Below, one piece after another: positions 2,891 to 45,800 of a stretch of DNA of 64,000 bases. The stretch is taken from the NCBI GenBank assembly GCA_963835065.1, contig CAWIEK010000016.1, forward strand, positions 1 to 64,000, in the 5' to 3' direction. This stretch comes from an uncultured Chthonomonadaceae bacterium (GTDB lineage: Bacteria; Armatimonadota; Chthonomonadetes; Chthonomonadales; Chthonomonadaceae). The notes below the pieces were generated by a model, which was not told the origin of the DNA, searched no databases, and saw only the letters and a list, made by a program, of their open reading frames with translations. A program made the translations under genes and the position numbers. Positions within the stretch are counted from its first letter, which is position 1. The number at the start of each line of letters is the position of its first letter.

Positions 2891-3724
2891 TTAGCCTGTC
2901 CAGCTTGGGTTCGGCCACGGCGCTATCCATGTATACGCTTGCCAATCCGGCCATGCTGCCTTGATTTCTCGGAGCAGCCAGTCGCCGGCAATTGTGGTGG
3001 AGTTTTCGTGCGTGGCGTATAGAAGCCAATCCAACTCGTCCGTACACCAGTACCGCTCCGGCCATGCGCTGGTCGGCTTCCAAAGCGACAGTTCCATCTC
3101 CCGGTCCGGTTCTCTGCCAAATTCCCAAAGTTCATAAACGCGCGGAATGTCCCTTCGGGCGAGTATCTGTTGCAGGGCGGCATACCCCAACTGATCGCGG
3201 ACGGCGCGGGAGTCCAGCACAATCAACTCATAAGGAAACTCGTACTTCTCGAACGGAACCCACCACTGCCCGTAATCCCCCAACGTTCCCGCAGTGTTGC
3301 CATAAGATGCTGACTTTCCTCCGGCAGCAGGGTGCGCCGATAGGGAAGCGGCTCGACGCGCCAGTGTTTCCAATCCTTTTGCGCGACGAATTGGCGCAGG
3401 CTGTCGGTAAAAAGATCGCGCTCTGCCTGCATCGCGGGCAGATAGGGAGGCTTTTGCCATGACTTCTGCGCGGTAAATTGGTTTTGCGCCGAACTGCGCG
3501 GTTTCCATCAGCCGCGCCGCCGCGTGTCCGCGTGAACGGAAATCAGCGGGTGTCAGGCGCTCCACTTCCACAAGGATGGCCTGTAGGACGAGGCGGCGGC
3601 AGCCATACGTAACGTCCTTGTCCGCGCCTGCCGCTTTTGCCTGATCGTACTCCTGTTTGAGCGCGGCGAGACGGTTCAGGCAGCAGTGGCGGGCAAAGGT
3701 GTGAACGGCTTCAATGGGTTTCAT
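2891..3724 (-). CDS. Hypothetical protein (probably two compensating indels near 3435 and 3268)
   Basis: 277-aa ORF; alternative frame 3223..3432 (EPLPYRRTL...LRERWGI) looks like the true middle; C-terminus YWCTDELDWLLYATHENSTTIAGDWL. Confidence 0.6.
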   Translation of the reverse strand: MKPIEAVHTFARHCCLNRLAALKQEYDQAKAAGADKDVTYGCRRLVLQAILVEVERLTPADFRSRGHAAARLMETAQFGAKPIYRAEVMAKASLSARDAGRARSFYRQPAPIRRAKGLETLARRAASLSAHPAAGGKSASYGNTAGTLGDYGQWWVPFEKYEFPYELIVLDSRAVRDQLGYAALQQILARRDIPRVYELWEFGREPDREMELSLWKPTSAWPERYWCTDELDWLLYATHENSTTIAGDWLLREIKAAWPDWQAYTWIAPWPNPSWTG

Positions 3725-3766
3725 GGGAGTGTGATGTTGGTATAATGAGGGTGGATGTGGAGAGGC

Positions 3767-4104
3767 AAAAAAAGAGAGGGTAAGTTTGGCGACTTAGCCC
3801 TCTCTGTTCAACTCTTCGCGTATGCGCGGTACGGTTCAGGCGCGCATACCGCGTAAGGACATTCGCGTCTCACCGCGATGTATCCCTGTGGCAGCGCCGT
3901 AAGGAGAAGATATGGAAACGATCTTCCATGTCCTGGGCATCGTGTATTACACGATGGCGATTACTCACCTTGTCTCTGACTACATCCAGAAGAACAAGGC
4001 TAAAGAGTAGGCCCTAGCCCGCAGCCCCGTCAGGAACTCTACTTCTTGGCGGGGTTTGTCTCAACCTGAGATATCCGCATACGCACAAGAACTTGCGTTC
4101 TTAC
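3767..4104 (-). ncRNA. Putative antisense RNA spanning the peptide ORF (candidate antitoxin)
   Basis: Minus-strand extended -10 TGATATAAT (4119-4111); minus-strand hairpin plus U7 terminator at 3805-3767; both conserved in copy 2. Confidence 0.55.
3912..4010 (+). CDS. 32-aa hydrophobic peptide METIFHVLGIVYYTMAITHLVSDYIQKNKAKE (putative type I toxin)
   Basis: SD AAGGAG upstream; the second copy differs by 4 synonymous changes and one D>E. Confidence 0.75.
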   Translation: METIFHVLGIVYYTMAITHLVSDYIQKNKAKE

Positions 4105-4181
4105 AGTGTTATTATATCACAAAATGGTCATTTCTGGAGGCAGGAAACGAGCAGAACCGTTTAATTTTTCGCAAACATCTC

Positions 4182-5718
4182 TTAAACGCTTCGACGCCGG
4201 AGTACCTGACCGGGATGCGCCCCCGTGATTTTGTTGTTGTCCAGCACGGGCGTTCCGTTCACCAGCACGTAGGGCAAGCCGACGGGCGGGGAAGCGGGAT
4301 TTGAGATGGTGGCGGTGTCCTGAACGGCCTGCGGGTCGAACAGCACAATGTCCGCTTTCTTGCCCGGCGCAATCTGGCCGCGATCCGCAAACCCCATGCG
4401 CTTGGCGGCAAGCAGCGTCATTTTGTGGATGGCCTGCTCCATTGTCAGGATTTTGCGTTCGCGGACGTACACGGCAAGGATGCGGGGGAAACTGCCCGCG
4501 CCGCGTGGATGCGTGGGGCGCAGCGAGCCATCCGTGCAGAACATCAGGCGCGGGCTGGCGACAAACTTATCCAAATCCCCTTCCGTCATGGCCGTCACAA
4601 CAACGCTTTCCCGCCCCGTCGCGCCCTCGCCATGCGTTTTCTGTACGATCTCCTGAATGATGGACACGGCATCCCGGCCCGTTGACTGCGCAATGTCGGC
4701 AATGGTCTTGTCTTTCCACATCGGGTCGGGCGTGTACTCGGTCAGGCGAACGTGTTCCGGCCCGCCCACTTCCGCCAATCCCTGCTGCCAGAGCGCGCGG
4801 TTGTTCCAGTCGCGGGAGGGGATCAAGACGGTAATAGTGGACTGCCAGTAGAGATACGGGTACACGTCCGCGCTGATGTCCAGCCCCTCCCGGTTCGCGT
4901 TTTCGATGCGCTGGAGAACGGCAGTGCGCATGGCCCCAACTCGGCGCGGTATCCAGCTTGATATGCGAGATTTGCGCGGGCAATTTGGCGCGGCGGGCGA
5001 TAGTAATCAGTTCCTCAAACGATTCTTCCGCCTTGTCGCCTTCGTCGCGCACATGGCTGATGTACAAGCCGCCATGCCGTCCCGCGATTTCCGAACAGGC
5101 AACAAGTTCGTCCGTCGTGGCGTAAAACCCCGGATCGTATTCCAGCCCCGTAGACAGTCCCAAGCCGCCCGCTTCCATTTCCTGCGCAACAAGCGAGCGC
5201 ATCTTTTCCAGTTCGCTGCTCGTGACCGGGCGCTTGTAATCGGTTCCCGTCGCCGCGCCGCGCACCGTGCCATGCCCGACGAAACTGGCGATGTTGAGCG
5301 CAACGTGTTTGGCTTCCAATTGCGCGAACCAGTCTTTGAGGGGCAGATGCGAACTTCCGTCCTGCCCGACAACGGATGTGGTAATGCCCTGCCGAATGTG
5401 GGTTTCCGCGTCGGGGTTTTCCAATAGCCCGCCGTCCACATGGCTGTGCGTATCTATGAAGCCCGGAGCCACGATCAGCCCCGTCGCGTCAATCACGCGC
5501 TCGTCCTTGCGCGGTTTGAATTTGCCGATACCCGCTATCCGCTCGCCCACAATGCGAACGTCCGCCCTGCGACCCGGCTTGCCCGTTCCATCCACAACCG
5601 TTCCGCCCGTAATCAGCAGCCGATTGGACGCGGGTTCCACCGCCCAACTGTCAGCCGAAAGCCCCAACACGCCCCCTGCTGCCACGACCCGCAAAAACTC
5701 ACCGCGCGATAAACTCAT
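4182..5718 (-). CDS. N-acyl-D-amino-acid deacylase (amidohydrolase family); frameshift near 4935
   Basis: VAPGFIDTHSH, GLSTGLEYDPG, SHVRDEG, ISHIK, DVYPY, HPRGAGSFPR, IAPGKKADIVLFD; Tat-like MSLSRGEFL N-terminus. Confidence 0.9.
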
Positions 5719-5859
5719 TTGTTGTTTTCTCCCTCTCTTGCCGCGCACACCTGCTGTTCAGGCTGCAAAGGAACTTTATGGTTCCATAGCGAAATGTCTG
5801 TCAACTCCGCTCTGGTTTGTATGCAGGTATACGCTACAGGAATGGCCGAGATTGCCGAA

Positions 5860-6001
5860 GTTTAGGCGATGGGCTGAACCCCTTCGCTGTATGGCCTGCG
5901 GCCCAGTGTCCTTCGGACACAACTTTGTAGACAGGGAATCTCTGTCCGAAGGACAGTCGGCGGAACGCCATCAAGCGAAGGGTTCAGTCCATCGCCTAAA
6001 C
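5860..6001. repeat. REP-like nested palindrome
   Basis: Terminal inverted repeat gtttaggcgatgggctgaaccc / gggttcagtccatcgcctaaac with inner tgtccttcggaca / tgtccgaaggaca. Confidence 0.75.
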
Positions 6002-22975: not shown

Positions 22976-25900
22976 TTAGTTGAAGAACAGGCCGCTGAGA
23001 ACCGCGTTGGGGCCTTGTCCGGCAACCGTATTGGTCAGGCGGAACTTGACGTGTCCCTTGATGTTCCACACCATGTACACGCCGTTCTGCATATTGCTCA
23101 TGCTTTGCGTGCTGAGAACCGCGTTCGTGGTGGCGTCCAGAACGTCAACAGATTGGGCGCGATTCCAGTGGTTGTAGGCATCGTAGTCCGTCGCATATAA
23201 GGTCACTTGATGCGCGTTGCCGTCCGTCAGGTTCACGTCTACGATGAAGTTTGTGCCGGAGTACCAGCAGGCGCAAAAACGGTCTGTGGCAGAATCCGGT
23301 TTTTGCAGGGCGGGCAGGTTGGACGTGGAGGAGTCCCATGTCCAGGTGGCGTTGCCACTCGCGCTGACAGTCGCGTAGCCGGGATAGGAAGCGGCGTAAT
23401 TGATGATGTTGTAACCGTCCGCGCCATACTTGCCTTTCCAGGTTCCCTGCGAAGTCGTGTCGCTTTTCAGGAACGTGGCGGAAGCGGCGGACGAACCGCC
23501 GGTGTTTTGCGCGTCAAAGAACAGGCCGGTGAGAACCGCGTTGGGTCCTTGTCCGGCAACCGTATTGGTCAGGCGGAACCTGACGTGTCCCTTGATGTTC
23601 CAGACCATGTACACGCCATTTTGCATAGTTGCTCATACTTTGCGTGCTGAGAACCGCGTTCGTGGTGGCATCCAGTACGTCAATGGTTTGGGTGCGATTC
23701 CAGTGGTTGTAGGCGTCGTAGTCGGTGCAATACAGCGCTATTTGATGCGTGTTGCCGTCCGTCAGGTTCATGTCTACGATGAAGTTTGTGCCGGAGTACC
23801 AGCAGGCGCAGAAACGATCCGTCGCCGCGCCGGGTTTTTGCAGGGCGGGCAGGTTGGATGTGGAGGAGTCCCACGTCCAGGTGGCGTTGCCACTCGCGCT
23901 GACACTGGCGTAGCCGGGATAGGAAGCGGCGTAATTGATGATGTTGTAGCCGTCCGCGCCGTACTTGCCCTTCCAGGTTCCCTGCGTTGTGGTATCGCTG
24001 CCCACGAATGACGCGGCATTGGGCGACGCAGCGGGCGGGGCTTGCGCGGCGGGCACGGTGACGAACGTGATGCTTTGCGCGGGCAGGTTCAGCGTCAGGG
24101 ATGGGGTGGCGTTTGCCGGCTGGTTCACGGTAACATCCGCCAGGCTGTTGATCGCGTTGGCGGAAGTGAGCTGCCAGGCTTTCGCCGTCGCGCCGGGCGT
24201 GAAGTTGGCGAGGCTGACGGTTGTTTGCGCGGTTCCGGTCAGGGCTTTGTTGATGAGCATGACAGTCAGAGCGCCGTCGCTGCTGCGCACGGACGCGAAA
24301 CTGCTCAGGTTATCCGGGTTGGGAACCACGTCGGATACGCTCACGTCGCCGAAGCCGTTGTTGTTGCCGTCCGGGTTGCGGTACATTTTAATCGCTTTGT
24401 AGGTCGGCGTTGTCGGGTCGGGGGTTCCCCACCGGGCGGCCATGTCCAAGCCTTCACGCCCGAAGATTCCCAGGATGTCGGCCTGCGTGGTCGCGCCGTT
24501 GATGTGTCCGTCCGCGCCCCAGTTGTACTCCGTTACGGCTGTCTTCAAGCCGGGGTAATACGTACTCACCCACCCCTTCATGCGCGGAATGAGCTGCACC
24601 TGCGTATTAATCCAGCTTGCGTCCACATAATTCGGGTCCCACAGGCTGCGTGTGCTGCGGTTGCGAAGAAGCTGCGTATTGGTGGAGGTATCGCTGCCGA
24701 ACTCGCCACTCTGCGGGTAGTAGTGCAGGCTGAACACGTCCAGAGACTTGGTTTTGTTGGTTGTATCGTAGCTTTTCAGCGAACTGAGCAGCCAGGGCAT
24801 CATGTCCATGTTGCCGTGCGAACTGCGGTCCGGCAGATTACTCCAGCCGTGCGCCGCGCCGTACTGCGTATCGTAGCCGCTGTACAGATAGCCGCTCCAG
24901 CCCCATTCTTCCGGCCCGACAACGAGTGCGTTAGGATCGGCGGCCTTGATTTTCGCCGCGTAATCTACCGTTTTACTGAATATTTCGTTCATGGTCGCGC
25001 CGACGGGATGAATGTCGCGGTGCGTGGAGTGCCAGATACCCGGCTCGTTATCCAGCAGGTAATAGGTCACGCCGCCCTTGCCGGCCATGCCGAACAAGCC
25101 CATGATGTGCTTGATCCAATTCTGCTGAAACGTGGAATCCGCTGCGACGTTGGCGTCGTTGGGATCGTTGCCCGTGACGTTCTGGCCGTTGGTCAAGACG
25201 CCGTTGCCCGCGTCGGGCATATAGCCGTCCGTAGACTGCTGCGCGCCGTATTTGCCGACCGAATAACTCGACAGTTTGCTGCGGTTCGCGCCCAACTTGG
25301 CGACCCAGCCGATTGTCGGGATCGTCACCATCGCCTGCGCTTTGCCCGTCAGCGTAGCGTAAATAAAGTTGTCTACCATGTCGCCCGCGTTGGCGCTTGA
25401 TTCGGGGATGCTTTCAAAGTACCAGTCGCTGGCGTGGTTGGAAGCGTTTTGCAGCCAGTTGTAGGTGGTTGCGGTATTGCCGCCGTAGCGGTTCAGGCCG
25501 ATGTTGAGATCGGTCAATTCCTGCGTGGACGCGCCCTGCGTGCCGTAAATGAGCGGGTTGATTGCATGGCGATTGACCGCCGCGTCCACGACAATCGTTG
25601 AGGACGTGGTTTGATTGACGGAGGCAAGCGTGATGTCGTCAATGTAAAACGGGGGCTGCGCGGTTCCGCCCGTTTCGGCGATCCAGAAGCCCGTCATGGC
25701 CGATGTTTTGCTCAGGCCGATGGCGGACAGGGGAACGGTCACTTGCCGCCACGTATTGGCCGCGACTCCGCCGCCCGAAATGTAGGGCGCGAGAGGCACA
25801 TTCGGCCCCGCCGTGCCGTTGACGATGCCGGCAATGCCCAGATTGCGCCCGCTTGTCGCGCCGCCATTGATCCAGAAGGTAATGCCGGCGTAATTGGTGG

Positions 25901-31417: not shown

Positions 31418-32047
31418 TCACGATACCCAGCCCCCCAGGATCTCCTGACGTGTCCATTTACCCTGCTTCTTCACCAGCACAGCCCATGCTCCTTCCGCGT
31501 TCAGCCCGTCGGAATGTCGGGCAACATACACCAGCGCCGTTTGGTGGTTCGCCGAAAAGCCGGGCAGGGAAACTTCCAGAAAACCATCCGTGTGCGGATA
31601 TTTCTTGTAGAAGTCTTCCCACCAGTGGTGTTCAAATATCTTGTCTATGTCGCTCCCCGCGACGACCTTCAAGGGTTTGCCAATGTCGAGAGCAGGAACC
31701 GTGTGCGAGGCAGCATTGCGTCGTTTGAAATCCTGAATAGCTTCCCGAACGGCGTCTGCGTTCAATCCGCGTCGGCTCACGTCAAGCGAGGATATGTCAC
31801 TGAGCTGTTTCAGCGGCAGCGTTTCGCGCCGAAGTACAAACGCATGCTGCCATCCGTAGAACTGCTTCCTCAGAATGGAACTCAGAATAGCCGCGTCTTC
31901 ATCGGGCACAGCAACAGCAGACCGCTGTGCAGGAAGAGTGGCGGAAACGGATAGCGGGCGAACATCGGCGCGGGGCTGTCGCGCAAGGCACAAACCGGCC
32001 GCCAGAACGGGGAATAACCAGACGCCGCGTGAAGACATTTTCATCAT
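31418..32047 (-). CDS. Secreted hypothetical protein, paralog A
   Basis: Signal peptide; WEDFYKKYP..DGFLEVSLPGFS. Confidence 0.75.
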   Translation of the reverse strand: MMKMSSRGVWLFPVLAAGLCLARQPRADVRPLSVSATLPAQRSAVAVPDEDAAILSSILRKQFYGWQHAFVLRRETLPLKQLSDISSLDVSRRGLNADAVREAIQDFKRRNAASHTVPALDIGKPLKVVAGSDIDKIFEHHWWEDFYKKYPHTDGFLEVSLPGFSANHQTALVYVARHSDGLNAEGAWAVLVKKQGKWTRQEILGGWVS

Positions 32048-32243: not shown

Positions 32244-32861
32244 TTACGCCATGGAGCCGGCTACGATTTCCCTCAGTGTCCACTGCCCCTGCTTCTTTTC
32301 CAGCAGGATCAAGTCGCTTTCTCCACTCAAACCACCAGAACTGCGAGAAATGTACACCAGCGCCGTTTGGTGGTCTGCTGAATAACCGGGCAGGGAAACT
32401 TCCAGAAAACCATCCGTGTGCGGATATTTCTTGTAGAAGTCTTTCCACCAGTGGTGTTCAAATATCTTGTCTATGTCGCTGCCGGGCACAGGGGTAAGCG
32501 GAACCCCCATGCTAAGGGCAGGGACTTTGTGCGGCGAAGCGTTGCGGCGGGCAAAGTCCTCGAAAGCTTCTTGCATTGCCTTTGCGGGATGCCTGCGTTT
32601 GTGTCTATCAAAGGAGAAAGCGGCGCGAAGATGTTTCAGCGGTATCGTGTCGCGCTTGATGACAAAGCCCTGATGCCACTCGGTATACTGCTTTGCGAGA
32701 ATAAAACTCAATACTCCGCTGTCCTCAGAGGAAACAGGAACAGCGGAAGATTGCGCCGGCCCGGTAGTGATAGCCACAGCAGGGCGGTCAGCGGGTTGGG
32801 TTTGCCAACAGGGAAGACAGGCGCAGACGGCGAGAAATAGATCGGCTTTAAACATCTTCAT
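32244..32861 (-). CDS. Secreted hypothetical protein, paralog B
   Basis: Homologous to 31418-32047; ATGA overlap with the upstream ORF. Confidence 0.75.
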   Translation of the reverse strand: MKMFKADLFLAVCACLPCWQTQPADRPAVAITTGPAQSSAVPVSSEDSGVLSFILAKQYTEWHQGFVIKRDTIPLKHLRAAFSFDRHKRRHPAKAMQEAFEDFARRNASPHKVPALSMGVPLTPVPGSDIDKIFEHHWWKDFYKKYPHTDGFLEVSLPGYSADHQTALVYISRSSGGLSGESDLILLEKKQGQWTLREIVAGSMA

Positions 32862-42786: not shown

Positions 42787-43713
42787 TTAATCCGCTGTAG
42801 TTGCTGCCTCATCAATCGCAGCGGCCAACGTGTCGTAAGTGGCGATAGTGTGCTGTACTTTCAGCAGACTGCTGAGACTGACGCCCTTTTGCTCCGCGAA
42901 CTTGGCGTTCAGCGTGGACGCCGCCACAACGTAGAACGTCCATTGCGCGATGTTGAGCGGGTCAATACTCTGCTTGTCCGTATGGTGCAGTAGGCAGAAT
43001 ACGTACACATCGGCCTGACGGCGCTTTTCTTCCTCGTACTTGCCGGTTGTCCTGTCCCAAGAGAGAGAAGGACTGATGCTGAACTGAATAGTAGACAGGC
43101 GGGCATGTGACCATGATTGCAGGTACGCACATGACTTTACTTCTACCTTCACGCCCTGCTCTGTTTTGACATCGTAGGCATCCCACTCGTCTCTCACTCC
43201 CTGCGTTTGTCCCAACGCGGAAGCGACAAGAAACTCCGCAAAAATGCCTCGTGTGGCATTGCTAACCAAGTCCGAAACAGACCACCGCCAGAAATTCAAC
43301 ACCGTCGCGTTAAGTGGCTGCCCGTTATCATGTATAGTCTCACTCCCTTGCAGCGGGCTAACTTGCAGAGCCGGGTAGTCATGCGCTTTCACTTCTTCCA
43401 TGATTTTGCTAACCTCCACAAGTGGCGTAACGTCCCGATTAGTAGTAAGCCCCGGCTTACAACGTTTGCAAACAACTATCGTCACATTATTGTTTTTAGC
43501 CCATACCTCAAGTTCATTACGGTCATCGGAGGCGATCTTAGGATTTTCAGTGCTGCCGTACCCCTCAGCAGGATTCATGCCACTACAGCCAACCTTGTGC
43601 AGCATCCACTCGCCCTTCTTCGGACGCTTGTTCAGATAGAAGCCGTGAAGATGTTGTGCCAGCCAAAGTTGGCACTGCATATCTTGTTCTTTGTTAAAGA
43701 ATTCCTCTACCAT
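42787..43713 (-). CDS. Two-domain protein: His/Cys N-terminal domain plus a restriction-endonuclease-like domain
   Basis: LHKVGC, CKRC; RGIFAEFLVA...WDAYDV...VEVKSCAYLQSW...ADVYVF; SD GGAAGG. Confidence 0.7.
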   Translation of the reverse strand: MVEEFFNKEQDMQCQLWLAQHLHGFYLNKRPKKGEWMLHKVGCSGMNPAEGYGSTENPKIASDDRNELEVWAKNNNVTIVVCKRCKPGLTTNRDVTPLVEVSKIMEEVKAHDYPALQVSPLQGSETIHDNGQPLNATVLNFWRWSVSDLVSNATRGIFAEFLVASALGQTQGVRDEWDAYDVKTEQGVKVEVKSCAYLQSWSHARLSTIQFSISPSLSWDRTTGKYEEEKRRQADVYVFCLLHHTDKQSIDPLNIAQWTFYVVAASTLNAKFAEQKGVSLSSLLKVQHTIATYDTLAAAIDEAATTAD

Positions 43714-44329: not shown

Positions 44330-44449
44330 TTACAGGCGGAACGGGCTGGCGCTGAGGCCGATATTGACGCGGGTTTTGCTGTAGACGGTTTCGCCCGCTT
44401 TCTGGTTCTCGTTGTTGTAGAGTTCGATGCGGTGGGACGTGTCGAGGCT
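44330..44449 (-). pseudogene. Internally deleted 3' remnant of the LolA-like gene (1982-2782)
   Basis: Matches 1982-2083 joined to 2218-2242 at the microhomology CGATGCG. Confidence 0.8.
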
Positions 44450-45347
44450 AGCGGTTTTCCAGCAGGCGAGCTAAATAGCCTTCCTCTTTCCGTATCGGCT
44501 TCCAACCCGAAGAACTCCGAGTGAGCCAGACAACAACATGCTTGGGCAAGTCCTTTTCGGCCTCTAATCCATATACTGCAACGTGTGAGGAGACAACCAT
44601 AGATTTTACCTGGGGAACATTCGTACCTATATGCCGCGACCATTGCAGGAAATCAAAAACCAGAGAGCCAACCTCGCTGTTTTGATAACTTCCATCCGGT
44701 TGCTTCACCGCCAGGTCAAATGTAGAGGAAGTTTTTTGATAATGTTCGGCAAAACTGACGACGGAATAATCAGATGTCCAGGCGATTAACTGATCGTAGT
44801 CCCGGTTGTCAAAGATATCAACCGAGAAATTATCAATTAAGTCGTCTGTTGGACCACCTATATCAACACCAACTTGGATAGCAGGATACCAGTGTTGTTG
44901 TTTCATAATCCGATGGATTTCCGTTTGGACAGCGGGATTCAAGGCTCCTTTGCTGAGAAAACTGTCGTCAGCCTGCTCCTGCGTAATGGGTTCTGAGGAT
45001 TTACTCGGCAGCGACAGCAGAATGACTTTCCTGGTGGTGGGATCTCCCATCGTGCAATAAAGGTGTCCGCGATACACCAGGAGCGTACTCAGCGGCTCCA
45101 GCGTTTGTGGCAGTTTCCAGTCCGCTACCCTGCGACCTTTTGCCGTCCACTCTTTGACGTGATAGCCGTCTGTAAACCGCGCGTAAGTGTACAGGTGTTT
45201 CGATTGTAAACCATAAGCCAGATCGAACACCTTATCAACCTCTATAGAGCGCATGTGGAGAACATTCTGGCCTTTGCTGCCTGCAAAGACTTGCGACGTT
45301 TGAATTTGCGCGGAGAATAGCAGGCAAGTCAGGGCTGGAACAAGCAT
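44448..45347 (-). CDS. Secreted hypothetical protein
   Basis: 299 aa, short signal-like N-terminus, SD GAGG. Confidence 0.7.
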   Translation of the reverse strand: MLVPALTCLLFSAQIQTSQVFAGSKGQNVLHMRSIEVDKVFDLAYGLQSKHLYTYARFTDGYHVKEWTAKGRRVADWKLPQTLEPLSTLLVYRGHLYCTMGDPTTRKVILLSLPSKSSEPITQEQADDSFLSKGALNPAVQTEIHRIMKQQHWYPAIQVGVDIGGPTDDLIDNFSVDIFDNRDYDQLIAWTSDYSVVSFAEHYQKTSSTFDLAVKQPDGSYQNSEVGSLVFDFLQWSRHIGTNVPQVKSMVVSSHVAVYGLEAEKDLPKHVVVWLTRSSSGWKPIRKEEGYLARLLENR

Positions 45348-45412: not shown

Positions 45413-45800
45413 GGTATAATGTTGCCGGATGAGGAGAGATGAAAAAAAGAGAGGGTAAGTTTGACGACTTATCCCTCTCTGTTCAACTCTTCGCGTATGC
45501 GCGGTACGGTTCAGGCGCGCATACCGCGCAAGGACATTCGTGTGCAACCACGATGTATCCCTGTGGCAGCGCCATGTAGGAGAAGACAATGGAAACGATC
45601 TTCCATGTCCTGGGCATCGTGTATTACACGATGGCGATTACTCACCTCGTCTCTGAGTACATTCAGAAAAACAAGGCGAAAGAGTAGGCCATAGCCCACA
45701 TCCCCGTCAGGGTGTAGCGCCCCTGGCGGGGTTTGTCTCAACCTGAAATATCCGCATACGCACCGGAACTTTCGCCCCGATAAGTTATTGTATCACAAAA
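45413..45800. repeat. Structured repeat element, copy 2 (candidate type I toxin-antitoxin locus)
   Basis: Homologous to 3738-4124; TATAAT at 45415-45420 and minus-strand TGATACAAT at 45795-45787. Confidence 0.85.
45589..45687 (+). CDS. 32-aa peptide METIFHVLGIVYYTMAITHLVSEYIQKNKAKE (putative type I toxin)
   Basis: SD AGGAG; conserved with 3912-4010. Confidence 0.75.
   Translation: METIFHVLGIVYYTMAITHLVSEYIQKNKAKE

Follow-up and report, generated by a model that had tools for sequence, protein, structure and literature searches.

Two members of one element in a Chthonomonadaceae genome

Does a short element that occurs twice in the window, by which we mean the whole 64,000-nucleotide stretch of DNA analysed, encode an undescribed type I toxin-antitoxin system? 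A sequence-only reading of the window had proposed so, pointing to a hidden 32-aa peptide and a full-length antisense RNA. The two elements lie at positions 3739-4124 and 45413-45800 and share 86.9% identity over 389 nt, and the DNA just outside them is unrelated. The signals that had been listed for them were recovered in both copies (Table 1): a plus-strand TATAAT box, an A7 run and a hairpin that read as a minus-strand terminator, two 5' UTR hairpins with the covarying arms TCGCG/CGCGA and TCGTG/CACGA, an AGGAG Shine-Dalgarno (SD) sequence, a 3' stem that is preserved while its loop is altered, and a minus-strand TGATA[T/C]AAT. The ORFs encode 32 aa each and differ by four synonymous changes and the conservative substitution D23E. 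A consensus scanner, which also demands a -35 hexamer, flagged neither -10 box and no minus-strand terminator at the window copies. Compared with shuffled sequences, the element folds with z-scores of -7.2 for the sense RNA and -5.4 for the antisense RNA. A contig of a related strain that covers copy 1 showed 0 changes in 3699-4143 vs 26 in the remainder of 3560-4330; this is a single, low-depth contig with 66 patchily placed changes in 2201 nt overall.

Table 1. Predicted features of the two element copies, with positions in the window
Copy	Feature	Position	Strand	Evidence or remark
1	Toxin-side -10 box TATAAT	3741-3746	+	Sequence; mRNA start predicted near 3753
1	Predicted antisense intrinsic terminator, hairpin + U7, within mRNA 5' UTR	3767-3805	-	-17.5 kcal/mol, z -4.7
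1	5' UTR hairpin 2	3824-3853	+	5/8 pairs compensatory; left arm alternatively pairable with 4065-4084
1	5' UTR hairpin 3	3857-3885	+	4/5 pairs compensatory; TCGCG/CGCGA vs TCGTG/CACGA
1	Upstream anti-SD candidate AUCCCUG	3882-3888	+	Predicted SD pairing 0.55-0.74 in both window copies
1	Shine-Dalgarno AGGAGA	3902-3907	+	Sequence
1	ORF, 32-aa hydrophobic peptide, Lys-rich tail, predicted single helix	3912-4010	+	55 related protein clusters
1	mRNA 3' hairpin	4021-4059	+	98.5% of cells paired
1	GNRA-loop hairpin at predicted antisense RNA 5' end	4087-4102	-	GCAA loop; GAAA in copy 2
1	Predicted antisense promoter, extended -10 TGnTATAAT	4111-4119	-	Sequence
1	Predicted antisense RNA, ~338 nt	3767-4105	-	Inferred from promoter and terminator positions
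2	Toxin-side -10 box TATAAT	45415-45420	+	Sequence
2	Predicted antisense terminator	45442-45480	-	-17.5 kcal/mol, z -4.5
2	5' UTR hairpins 2 and 3	45499-45560	+	45493-45515 predicted to pair with 45742-45761, probabilities 0.86-1.0
2	Shine-Dalgarno AGGAGA	45578-45583	+	Sequence
2	ORF, 32 aa, E at residue 23	45589-45687	+	Sequence
2	mRNA 3' hairpin	45698-45736	+	Flagged terminator-like on sense strand
2	GAAA-loop hairpin, minus strand only (G-U pairs)	45764-45779	-	-8.4 kcal/mol minus vs -2.2 plus
2	Predicted antisense promoter, extended -10 TGnTACAAT	45787-45795	-	Sequence

Family size, distribution, and subtypes

The element had been described as twice repeated. Both window copies are real, but the 8.0-Mb source genome carries six: besides the window pair, there are two copies on contig C37 and single copies on C3 and C9, that on C9 being divergent. 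BLASTN, the proposed means of counting copies genome-wide, found two close copies only, and the other four came from profile searches and a small-ORF scan. Searches for relatives added loci in 11 further genomes, and a DNA pattern search added two metagenome contigs. The family as delimited here comprises 34 DNA loci, 32 of them in 12 Chthonomonadaceae genomes (seven genera, 1-7 loci each) and 2 on the metagenome contigs. This count is a lower bound, since the short-type profile was run over 42 genomes and the long-type profile over 32. The carriers, 12 of the 42 Chthonomonadaceae genomes searched, are distributed patchily, and no verified locus was found in 369 sampled genomes from other families of the Armatimonadota.

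Protein searches yielded about 55 clusters, none with a Pfam domain and none named beyond "hypothetical"; a search of 50% representatives returned seven matches, two of which were repetitive artefacts. Ten weak matches were discarded as false after inspection before the set of 34 loci was settled. The candidates dropped as false matches were L016, L017, L037, L098, L099, L101-L105, P0002, and P0005, and P0001 proved to be a fused duplicate. All locus counts given below are non-independent, as the loci are mutually related; in the first 26 loci, the places of the -10 boxes and hairpins were picked after inspection.

The loci share one layout: a toxin-side -10 box, a structured 5' UTR, an SD sequence, a peptide of 30-43 aa, a 3' hairpin, and an opposing -10 box. 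Three types of peptide occupy it, one of 30-36 aa, one longer by about one heptad, and one of 43 aa that lacks the G-x-x-Y-Y motif and occurs in two genomes. The short- and long-type profiles align with each other at 96.6% probability. The 43-aa type, encoded by L069 (301-429, minus strand; G000:C9) and L114 (1501-1629, plus strand; G001), has the same layout of promoters, terminator, and hairpins, and no further relatives of this peptide were found in the protein database. A tree of the family displays within-genome expansions, and the window pair clusters with a copy from another genus, not with its genome-mates (support 96/83 and 98/96).

The ORF is coding and specifies a predicted membrane helix

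For 13 short-type loci, pN/pS over the core codons was 0.71, with pN<pS in 71 of 78 pairs; for 11 long-type loci it was 0.46, with pN<pS in 55/55 pairs, the pairs being non-independent in both sets. These codon comparisons indicate that the family ORF is coding and under purifying selection. Disruption of the ORF in other copies had been named as a finding that would speak against the proposal. Damaged ORFs do occur, in 7 of the 34 loci (by a premature stop in one, a frameshift in another, and loss of the stop codon in five, all possibly sequencing errors), and the antisense promoter is kept in them, a combination that we count in favour of the type I reading.

Among the 42 peptides of at most 40 aa, the best 19-residue hydropathy exceeds 1.6 in 36, and 34 have a positively charged tail. 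AlphaFold2 predicts one helix, spanning residues 2-31, with a pLDDT of 90. The peptide length of 30-43 aa and the mRNA span of 259-402 nt are in keeping with the size range used for type I toxins (20-60 aa, one hydrophobic helix, a charged tail, and an mRNA of 150-400 nt).

Such a peptide could instead lack toxicity and act as a small membrane protein that assists or regulates a transporter or kinase, with its expression tuned by the antisense RNA. Hydropathy is no more than moderate in the window peptides (1.51 over 19 residues), the conserved face H-x-L-G-I-V-Y-Y-T-x-A could be a binding surface, and the source genome encodes proteins of this kind, e.g., KdpF. Some type I-like loci are also harmless: YhzE (PMC2887945) and four of six predicted toxins (PMC12390103) are reported as non-toxic. 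Harmlessness in a single host is weak evidence, however, as BsrG and TxpA show no toxicity in E. coli (PMC12390103). An accessory role is, however, hard to match with 26 loci that have no neighbour or partner gene in common, with a patchy multi-copy spread (1-7 per genome, 12/42 family genomes), and with an antisense promoter that is better kept than the sense promoter, while the ORF itself is damaged in 7/34 loci. We consider this explanation unlikely.

A conserved opposing -10 box and a predicted antisense RNA

An opposing -10 box with a match of at least 5/6 is present in 34/34 loci, and a toxin-side box in 23/34; in this tally one locus is clipped by a contig end, and toxin-side boxes without the first T are left uncounted. 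The asymmetry extends to the quality of the boxes, with a perfect -10 hexamer at 18 opposing vs 5 toxin-side positions and a TG extension at 21 vs 3 (of 34 loci). The chance of encountering an opposing box was 7.9% in genome windows and 26/503 in flanks (5-8%). Among candidates retrieved by a protein profile after the test window had been fixed, the box occurred in 7/7 members and in 0/7 false matches from the same search. A stronger, never-lost antisense promoter combined with a weaker toxin promoter and occasional broken ORFs is the pattern predicted for a toxic gene, and from it we infer that the peptide is probably harmful to its host.

The antisense promoter lies 165-250 nt downstream of the start codon, and a minus-strand A-run with a hairpin, scored as a terminator, was found in 24/26 loci. 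From the positions of these two signals, the antisense RNA is predicted to be 242-384 nt long, which exceeds the usual range of 60-200 nt given for type I antitoxins in PMC8594479. The conserved minus-strand terminator sits upstream of the SD sequence and mostly inside the mRNA 5' UTR; in one subtype (G001a, G001b, G000e, and G000f), it lies upstream of the toxin -10 box. ORFs on the antisense strand occur in 8/34 loci and are not conserved.

The minus-strand transcript might itself be the real product, either a stand-alone sRNA or a leader or attenuator for the gene past the terminator, with the peptide ORF being incidental. The minus-strand promoter is the best-conserved signal, and both window copies, like most loci, have a same-strand gene past the terminator, as this explanation would have it. 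Set against these points are the purifying selection on the ORF and its strong SD sequence, the G-U pairs of the sense hairpins, which are specific to the sense strand, and the downstream genes, which are functionally unrelated and in several cases oppositely oriented. Its probability appears very low to us.

Predicted RNA structures on both strands and predicted masking of the SD sequence

In the 12 aligned long-UTR loci (of 34), five helices were 92% paired, and 22 of their 42 pairs showed compensatory changes, a level that was reached by 0 of 500 shuffles; slid controls were 39-51% paired. The helix structure was derived from the same alignment in which the covariation was tested. The hairpin of the antisense terminator (3767-3805 in copy 1) accounts for compensatory changes at 7/10 pairs across the 12 loci. 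Strand preferences differ among the hairpins. In 25/26 loci, it is the sense strand that gives the more stable 3' hairpin. The predicted antisense RNA starts with a segment of 36 nt, often with a GNRA loop, whose fold is better on the minus strand in 12 of the 14 loci possessing it. The terminator hairpin shows no preference (13 vs 10 of 24), as would follow from its presence in both RNAs. Together, the covariation and the strand preferences indicate that both strands are under structural selection.

Masking of the SD sequence is predicted as well, and we regard it as less secure than the strand structure. The SD sequence is predicted to be paired at P>0.5 in 12/12 full-length long-UTR (subtype-A) mRNAs. 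In most relatives, a CU-rich anti-SD tail follows the 3' hairpin, and it is predicted to pair with the SD sequence at P>0.5 in 15/26 loci. Its removal lowers the computed cost of opening the ribosome site in 22/26 loci (16/26 when compared with shuffled tails), and a locus's own tail outdoes 95% of flank windows in 13/26. Pairing of SD sequences with their own vs other loci's tails was not significant (p 0.09 and 0.13), and neither was the co-variation of the two segments.

The window copies have a degenerate tail, and their SD/tail pairing probabilities are 0.00 and 0.05. Their predicted SD partner is an upstream UCCCU (0.55-0.74) together with the early coding region; upstream anti-SD pairing above 0.4 was predicted in only 2-3 of 12 loci. 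The 5'-3' long-range pairing that had been proposed as an alternative fold holds for copy 2, with a probability of about 0.9-1.0, but is absent from the ensemble of copy 1, and in neither window copy does it mask the SD sequence. Across the family, long-range pairing is marginal (p 0.04; 0.067 without near-duplicates). No conserved U-tailed terminator was found at the mRNA 3' end, and among the window copies the 3' hairpin was flagged as terminator-like only in copy 2.

Comparison with databases and known systems

The peptide had not been recognised as a member of a named family, and the searches matched it to none. Rfam gave no match at its gathering score in the 20 loci examined of 34, and a KDPG-aldolase RNA candidate at the window was rejected (16.7 bits vs a cut-off of 54.6, not above chance). 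The window peptides had no match in Pfam, PADLOC returned none for the peptide, a PDB sequence search with the family profile gave nothing at E 10, and the ESM Atlas gave no usable match and was uninformative.

The closest likeness, far under its cut-off, is to PepG1 (NCBIfam NF041589). Sub-threshold matches to this profile were found in 24/45 members, at profile positions 18-45 (best E 1.3e-4), and in 0/20 control small hydrophobic ORFs drawn from 28 non-family candidates. The element may accordingly be a type I pair whose toxin is a distant SprG1/PepG1 homologue, from the group of TxpA and holin-like peptides, with a rearranged antitoxin; matches to Pfam Hol_Tox in 1/45 members and to a holin PHROG in 6/45 point the same way. 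However, the best score is 21.5 bits vs a cut-off of 70, and the window peptide is unmatched. The profile misses the window copies in their genome and rings in 9/14 control genomes, so that the resemblance could reflect homology or convergence. The family profile found nothing in PDB, the best PepG1-scoring member found nothing in phages or plasmids, and SprF1 overlaps the 3' end of its target only (PMC8309996). We assign this origin a small probability. It is compatible with the type I reading and reduces its novelty alone.

In architecture, sprG1/SprF1 of S. aureus and TxpA/RatA likewise have a single-helix peptide of about 31 aa with a basic C-terminus and an antitoxin promoter downstream of the toxin gene (PMC8309996), but the antisense RNA predicted here spans the SD sequence and the 5' UTR. 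The Ibs/Sib loci of E. coli are likewise multi-copy and chromosomal, with an antisense RNA over the whole ORF and the ribosome-binding site, as predicted here (PMC4147584, PMC2943612). Ibs peptides, by contrast, are about 19 aa long and lack a basic tail (PMC8309996), and the Ibs/Sib repeat of about 140 nt, with an mRNA of about 160 nt, is shorter than our predicted antisense RNA, which sometimes runs past the toxin promoter. No Ibs family appeared in the Pfam and NCBIfam matches of the 45 members, and no Sib match in Rfam among the 20 loci of 34. The aapA/IsoA system of Helicobacter resembles the family in its peptide of about 30 aa, its several anti-SD elements (local and far downstream), and a long-distance pairing between 5' and 3' ends that is predicted to keep the full-length mRNA silent (PMC6733600). 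It differs in that IsoA3 is 80 nt long with a promoter inside the ORF (PMC6733600), whereas the antisense promoter here lies downstream of the 3' hairpin, and no sequence match to it was found in Rfam (20 loci of 34) or Pfam. Fst/Ldr/SprA1 peptides are alike in size, single helix, and charged tail (PMC8309996). Their APxxxG motif is nevertheless found in 0/82 distinct family peptides, and no shared bidirectional terminator is evident here. In hok/sok, the antisense RNA is confined to the leader and the peptide is longer than here. The conserved leader ORF of hok/sok also has no counterpart, leader ORFs being present in only 4/34 loci and mutually unrelated, and no Hok match was found in Pfam. 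What hok/sok does share is a 3' element that masks the ribosome-binding site (PMC8594479).

Genomic context and local duplications

The neighbours of 26 loci are unrelated genes, and flanks are common only to two near-identical pairs. Neighbours this diverse do not fit an element that regulates a single pathway in cis, and a cis-leader role was rejected on this ground. Several copies lie in or between local duplications. In L039 (G017:C12; G017b), the element sits between dnaN and a 417-bp, 88% identical duplicate of the dnaN 3' end; the C37 copies are associated with a 2.5-kb, 97% tandem duplication, and G020d with a 108-bp repeat. In the window, the 3' end of a LolA-like gene is duplicated over 108 bp at 94% identity (1982-2089 and 44330-44436), and the spacing of 42.3 kb between the duplicates is nearly the same offset as the 41.7 kb between the two elements. 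Directly upstream of the elements are two orphan ORFs, 2891-3724 and 44448-45347, which differ from each other, have no Pfam match, and are single-copy. This arrangement suggests a segmental duplication with replaced middles.

The dispersal of the copies and their occurrence in or between duplications would also fit a non-autonomous mobile repeat or a functionless duplication, including one made by the assembly. Yet short flanking direct repeats are absent in 24/26 loci, the window copies are 13% apart with compensatory and synonymous changes, and an independent contig spans copy 1. Selection at the level of codons and base pairs contradicts this explanation, and we regard it as extremely improbable. 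None of seven pattern matches on viral contigs was confirmed, and the one member searched against phage and plasmid collections, the best PepG1-scoring one, had no match.

A proposed type I toxin-antitoxin module

Several comparative findings support the type I interpretation of the sequence-only reading: the layout recurs in 34 loci, the ORF is under purifying selection, stems covary, both strands have hairpins specific to them, every locus carries an opposing -10 box, and no described family was matched. On these sequence-derived grounds, we think it probable that the element is a self-contained two-promoter module of an undescribed type I toxin-antitoxin family. Its predicted anatomy fits the definition of type I systems given in PMC8594479 and the hallmarks of SD masking described in PMC6733600 and PMC8309996. 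The family is likely Ibs/Sib-like in its overlap and AapA-like in its SD masking, with a long predicted antitoxin.

In the proposed mechanism, the sense mRNA would encode a peptide of 30-43 aa with a single predicted membrane helix, which is likely toxic, and the stronger opposing promoter would produce an antisense RNA against the 3' hairpin, the ORF, the SD sequence, and most or all of the 5' UTR. Folding of the mRNA would mask its SD sequence, with the 3' CU-rich tail as the partner in most relatives; in the window copies, this part would fall to the early coding region and the upstream UCCCU. Any translatable form of the mRNA would be paired by the antisense RNA, which would block ribosomes and probably invite cleavage by RNase III, as in Ibs/Sib; head-on transcription may also damp the toxin promoter. 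Once antisense synthesis stops, through loss of the locus or transcription shut-off, the peptide would be made and would enter the inner membrane, with its basic tail as an anchor, and the cell would be arrested or killed.

The role of the module is likely addiction, i.e., self-maintenance, and a response to stress or phage is possible. More tentatively, and with considerable doubt, we suggest that this lineage-specific addiction module, in a phylum without a reported type I system, might be a reusable RNA chassis. Head-on promoters and near mirror-image transcripts would form its frame, the antisense RNA of one subtype would cross the toxin promoter and add transcriptional interference, and the peptide cargo (32 aa, one heptad longer, or 43 aa without the family motif) would be exchangeable; such a module might keep in place local duplications that recombination would otherwise remove.

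Reports of type I systems come from Proteobacteria, Firmicutes, and Tenericutes, with one cyanobacterial candidate, and there is a suspicion that so narrow a range reflects biased searching (PMC12390103). No description of a toxin-antitoxin system from Armatimonadota or Chthonomonas was found in the literature searched, the supplementary lists of PMC2887945 and T1TAdb lying outside that search, and the passages of PMC2887945 covered by it do not mention the old name of the phylum. A multi-copy type I family confined to the Chthonomonadaceae (Armatimonadota) would back the view of a search bias. Its class of mechanism is already known; the family is likely new. The layout, with opposing extended -10 boxes, a terminator inside or beyond the toxin 5' UTR, and strand-specific hairpins, offers a search target that does not depend on peptide similarity, and at about 390 nt the whole module is easy to test.

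Other features of the window and source genome

A 17-nt perfect palindrome lies inside the ORF at 3939-3955 and 45616-45632 and recurs across the family, in some places with compensatory changes; it may act as an mRNA hairpin or as a site for protein binding. Compared with G001 and G024, an amidohydrolase gene at 4182-5748 (minus strand) is interrupted by a frameshift near 4927, and the related-strain contig lacks one base at 4925. Related genomes contain many copies of a palindromic repeat, about 140 bp long, that occupies 5860-6001. The window also has two sets of direct repeats, one of 483 bp (90%; 22983-23464 and 23517-23999) and one of 208 bp (82%; 31450-31657 and 32276-32483). A low-GC (51%) orphan at 42787-43713 (minus strand), 1.7 kb from copy 2, has a weak PADLOC match to a methyl-directed restriction enzyme (E 0.003). 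Elsewhere in the genome, L081 (301-402, minus strand; G000:C15) is a 34-aa hydrophobic ORF outside the family, without an NCBIfam match, that has an SD sequence and a strongly basic tail.
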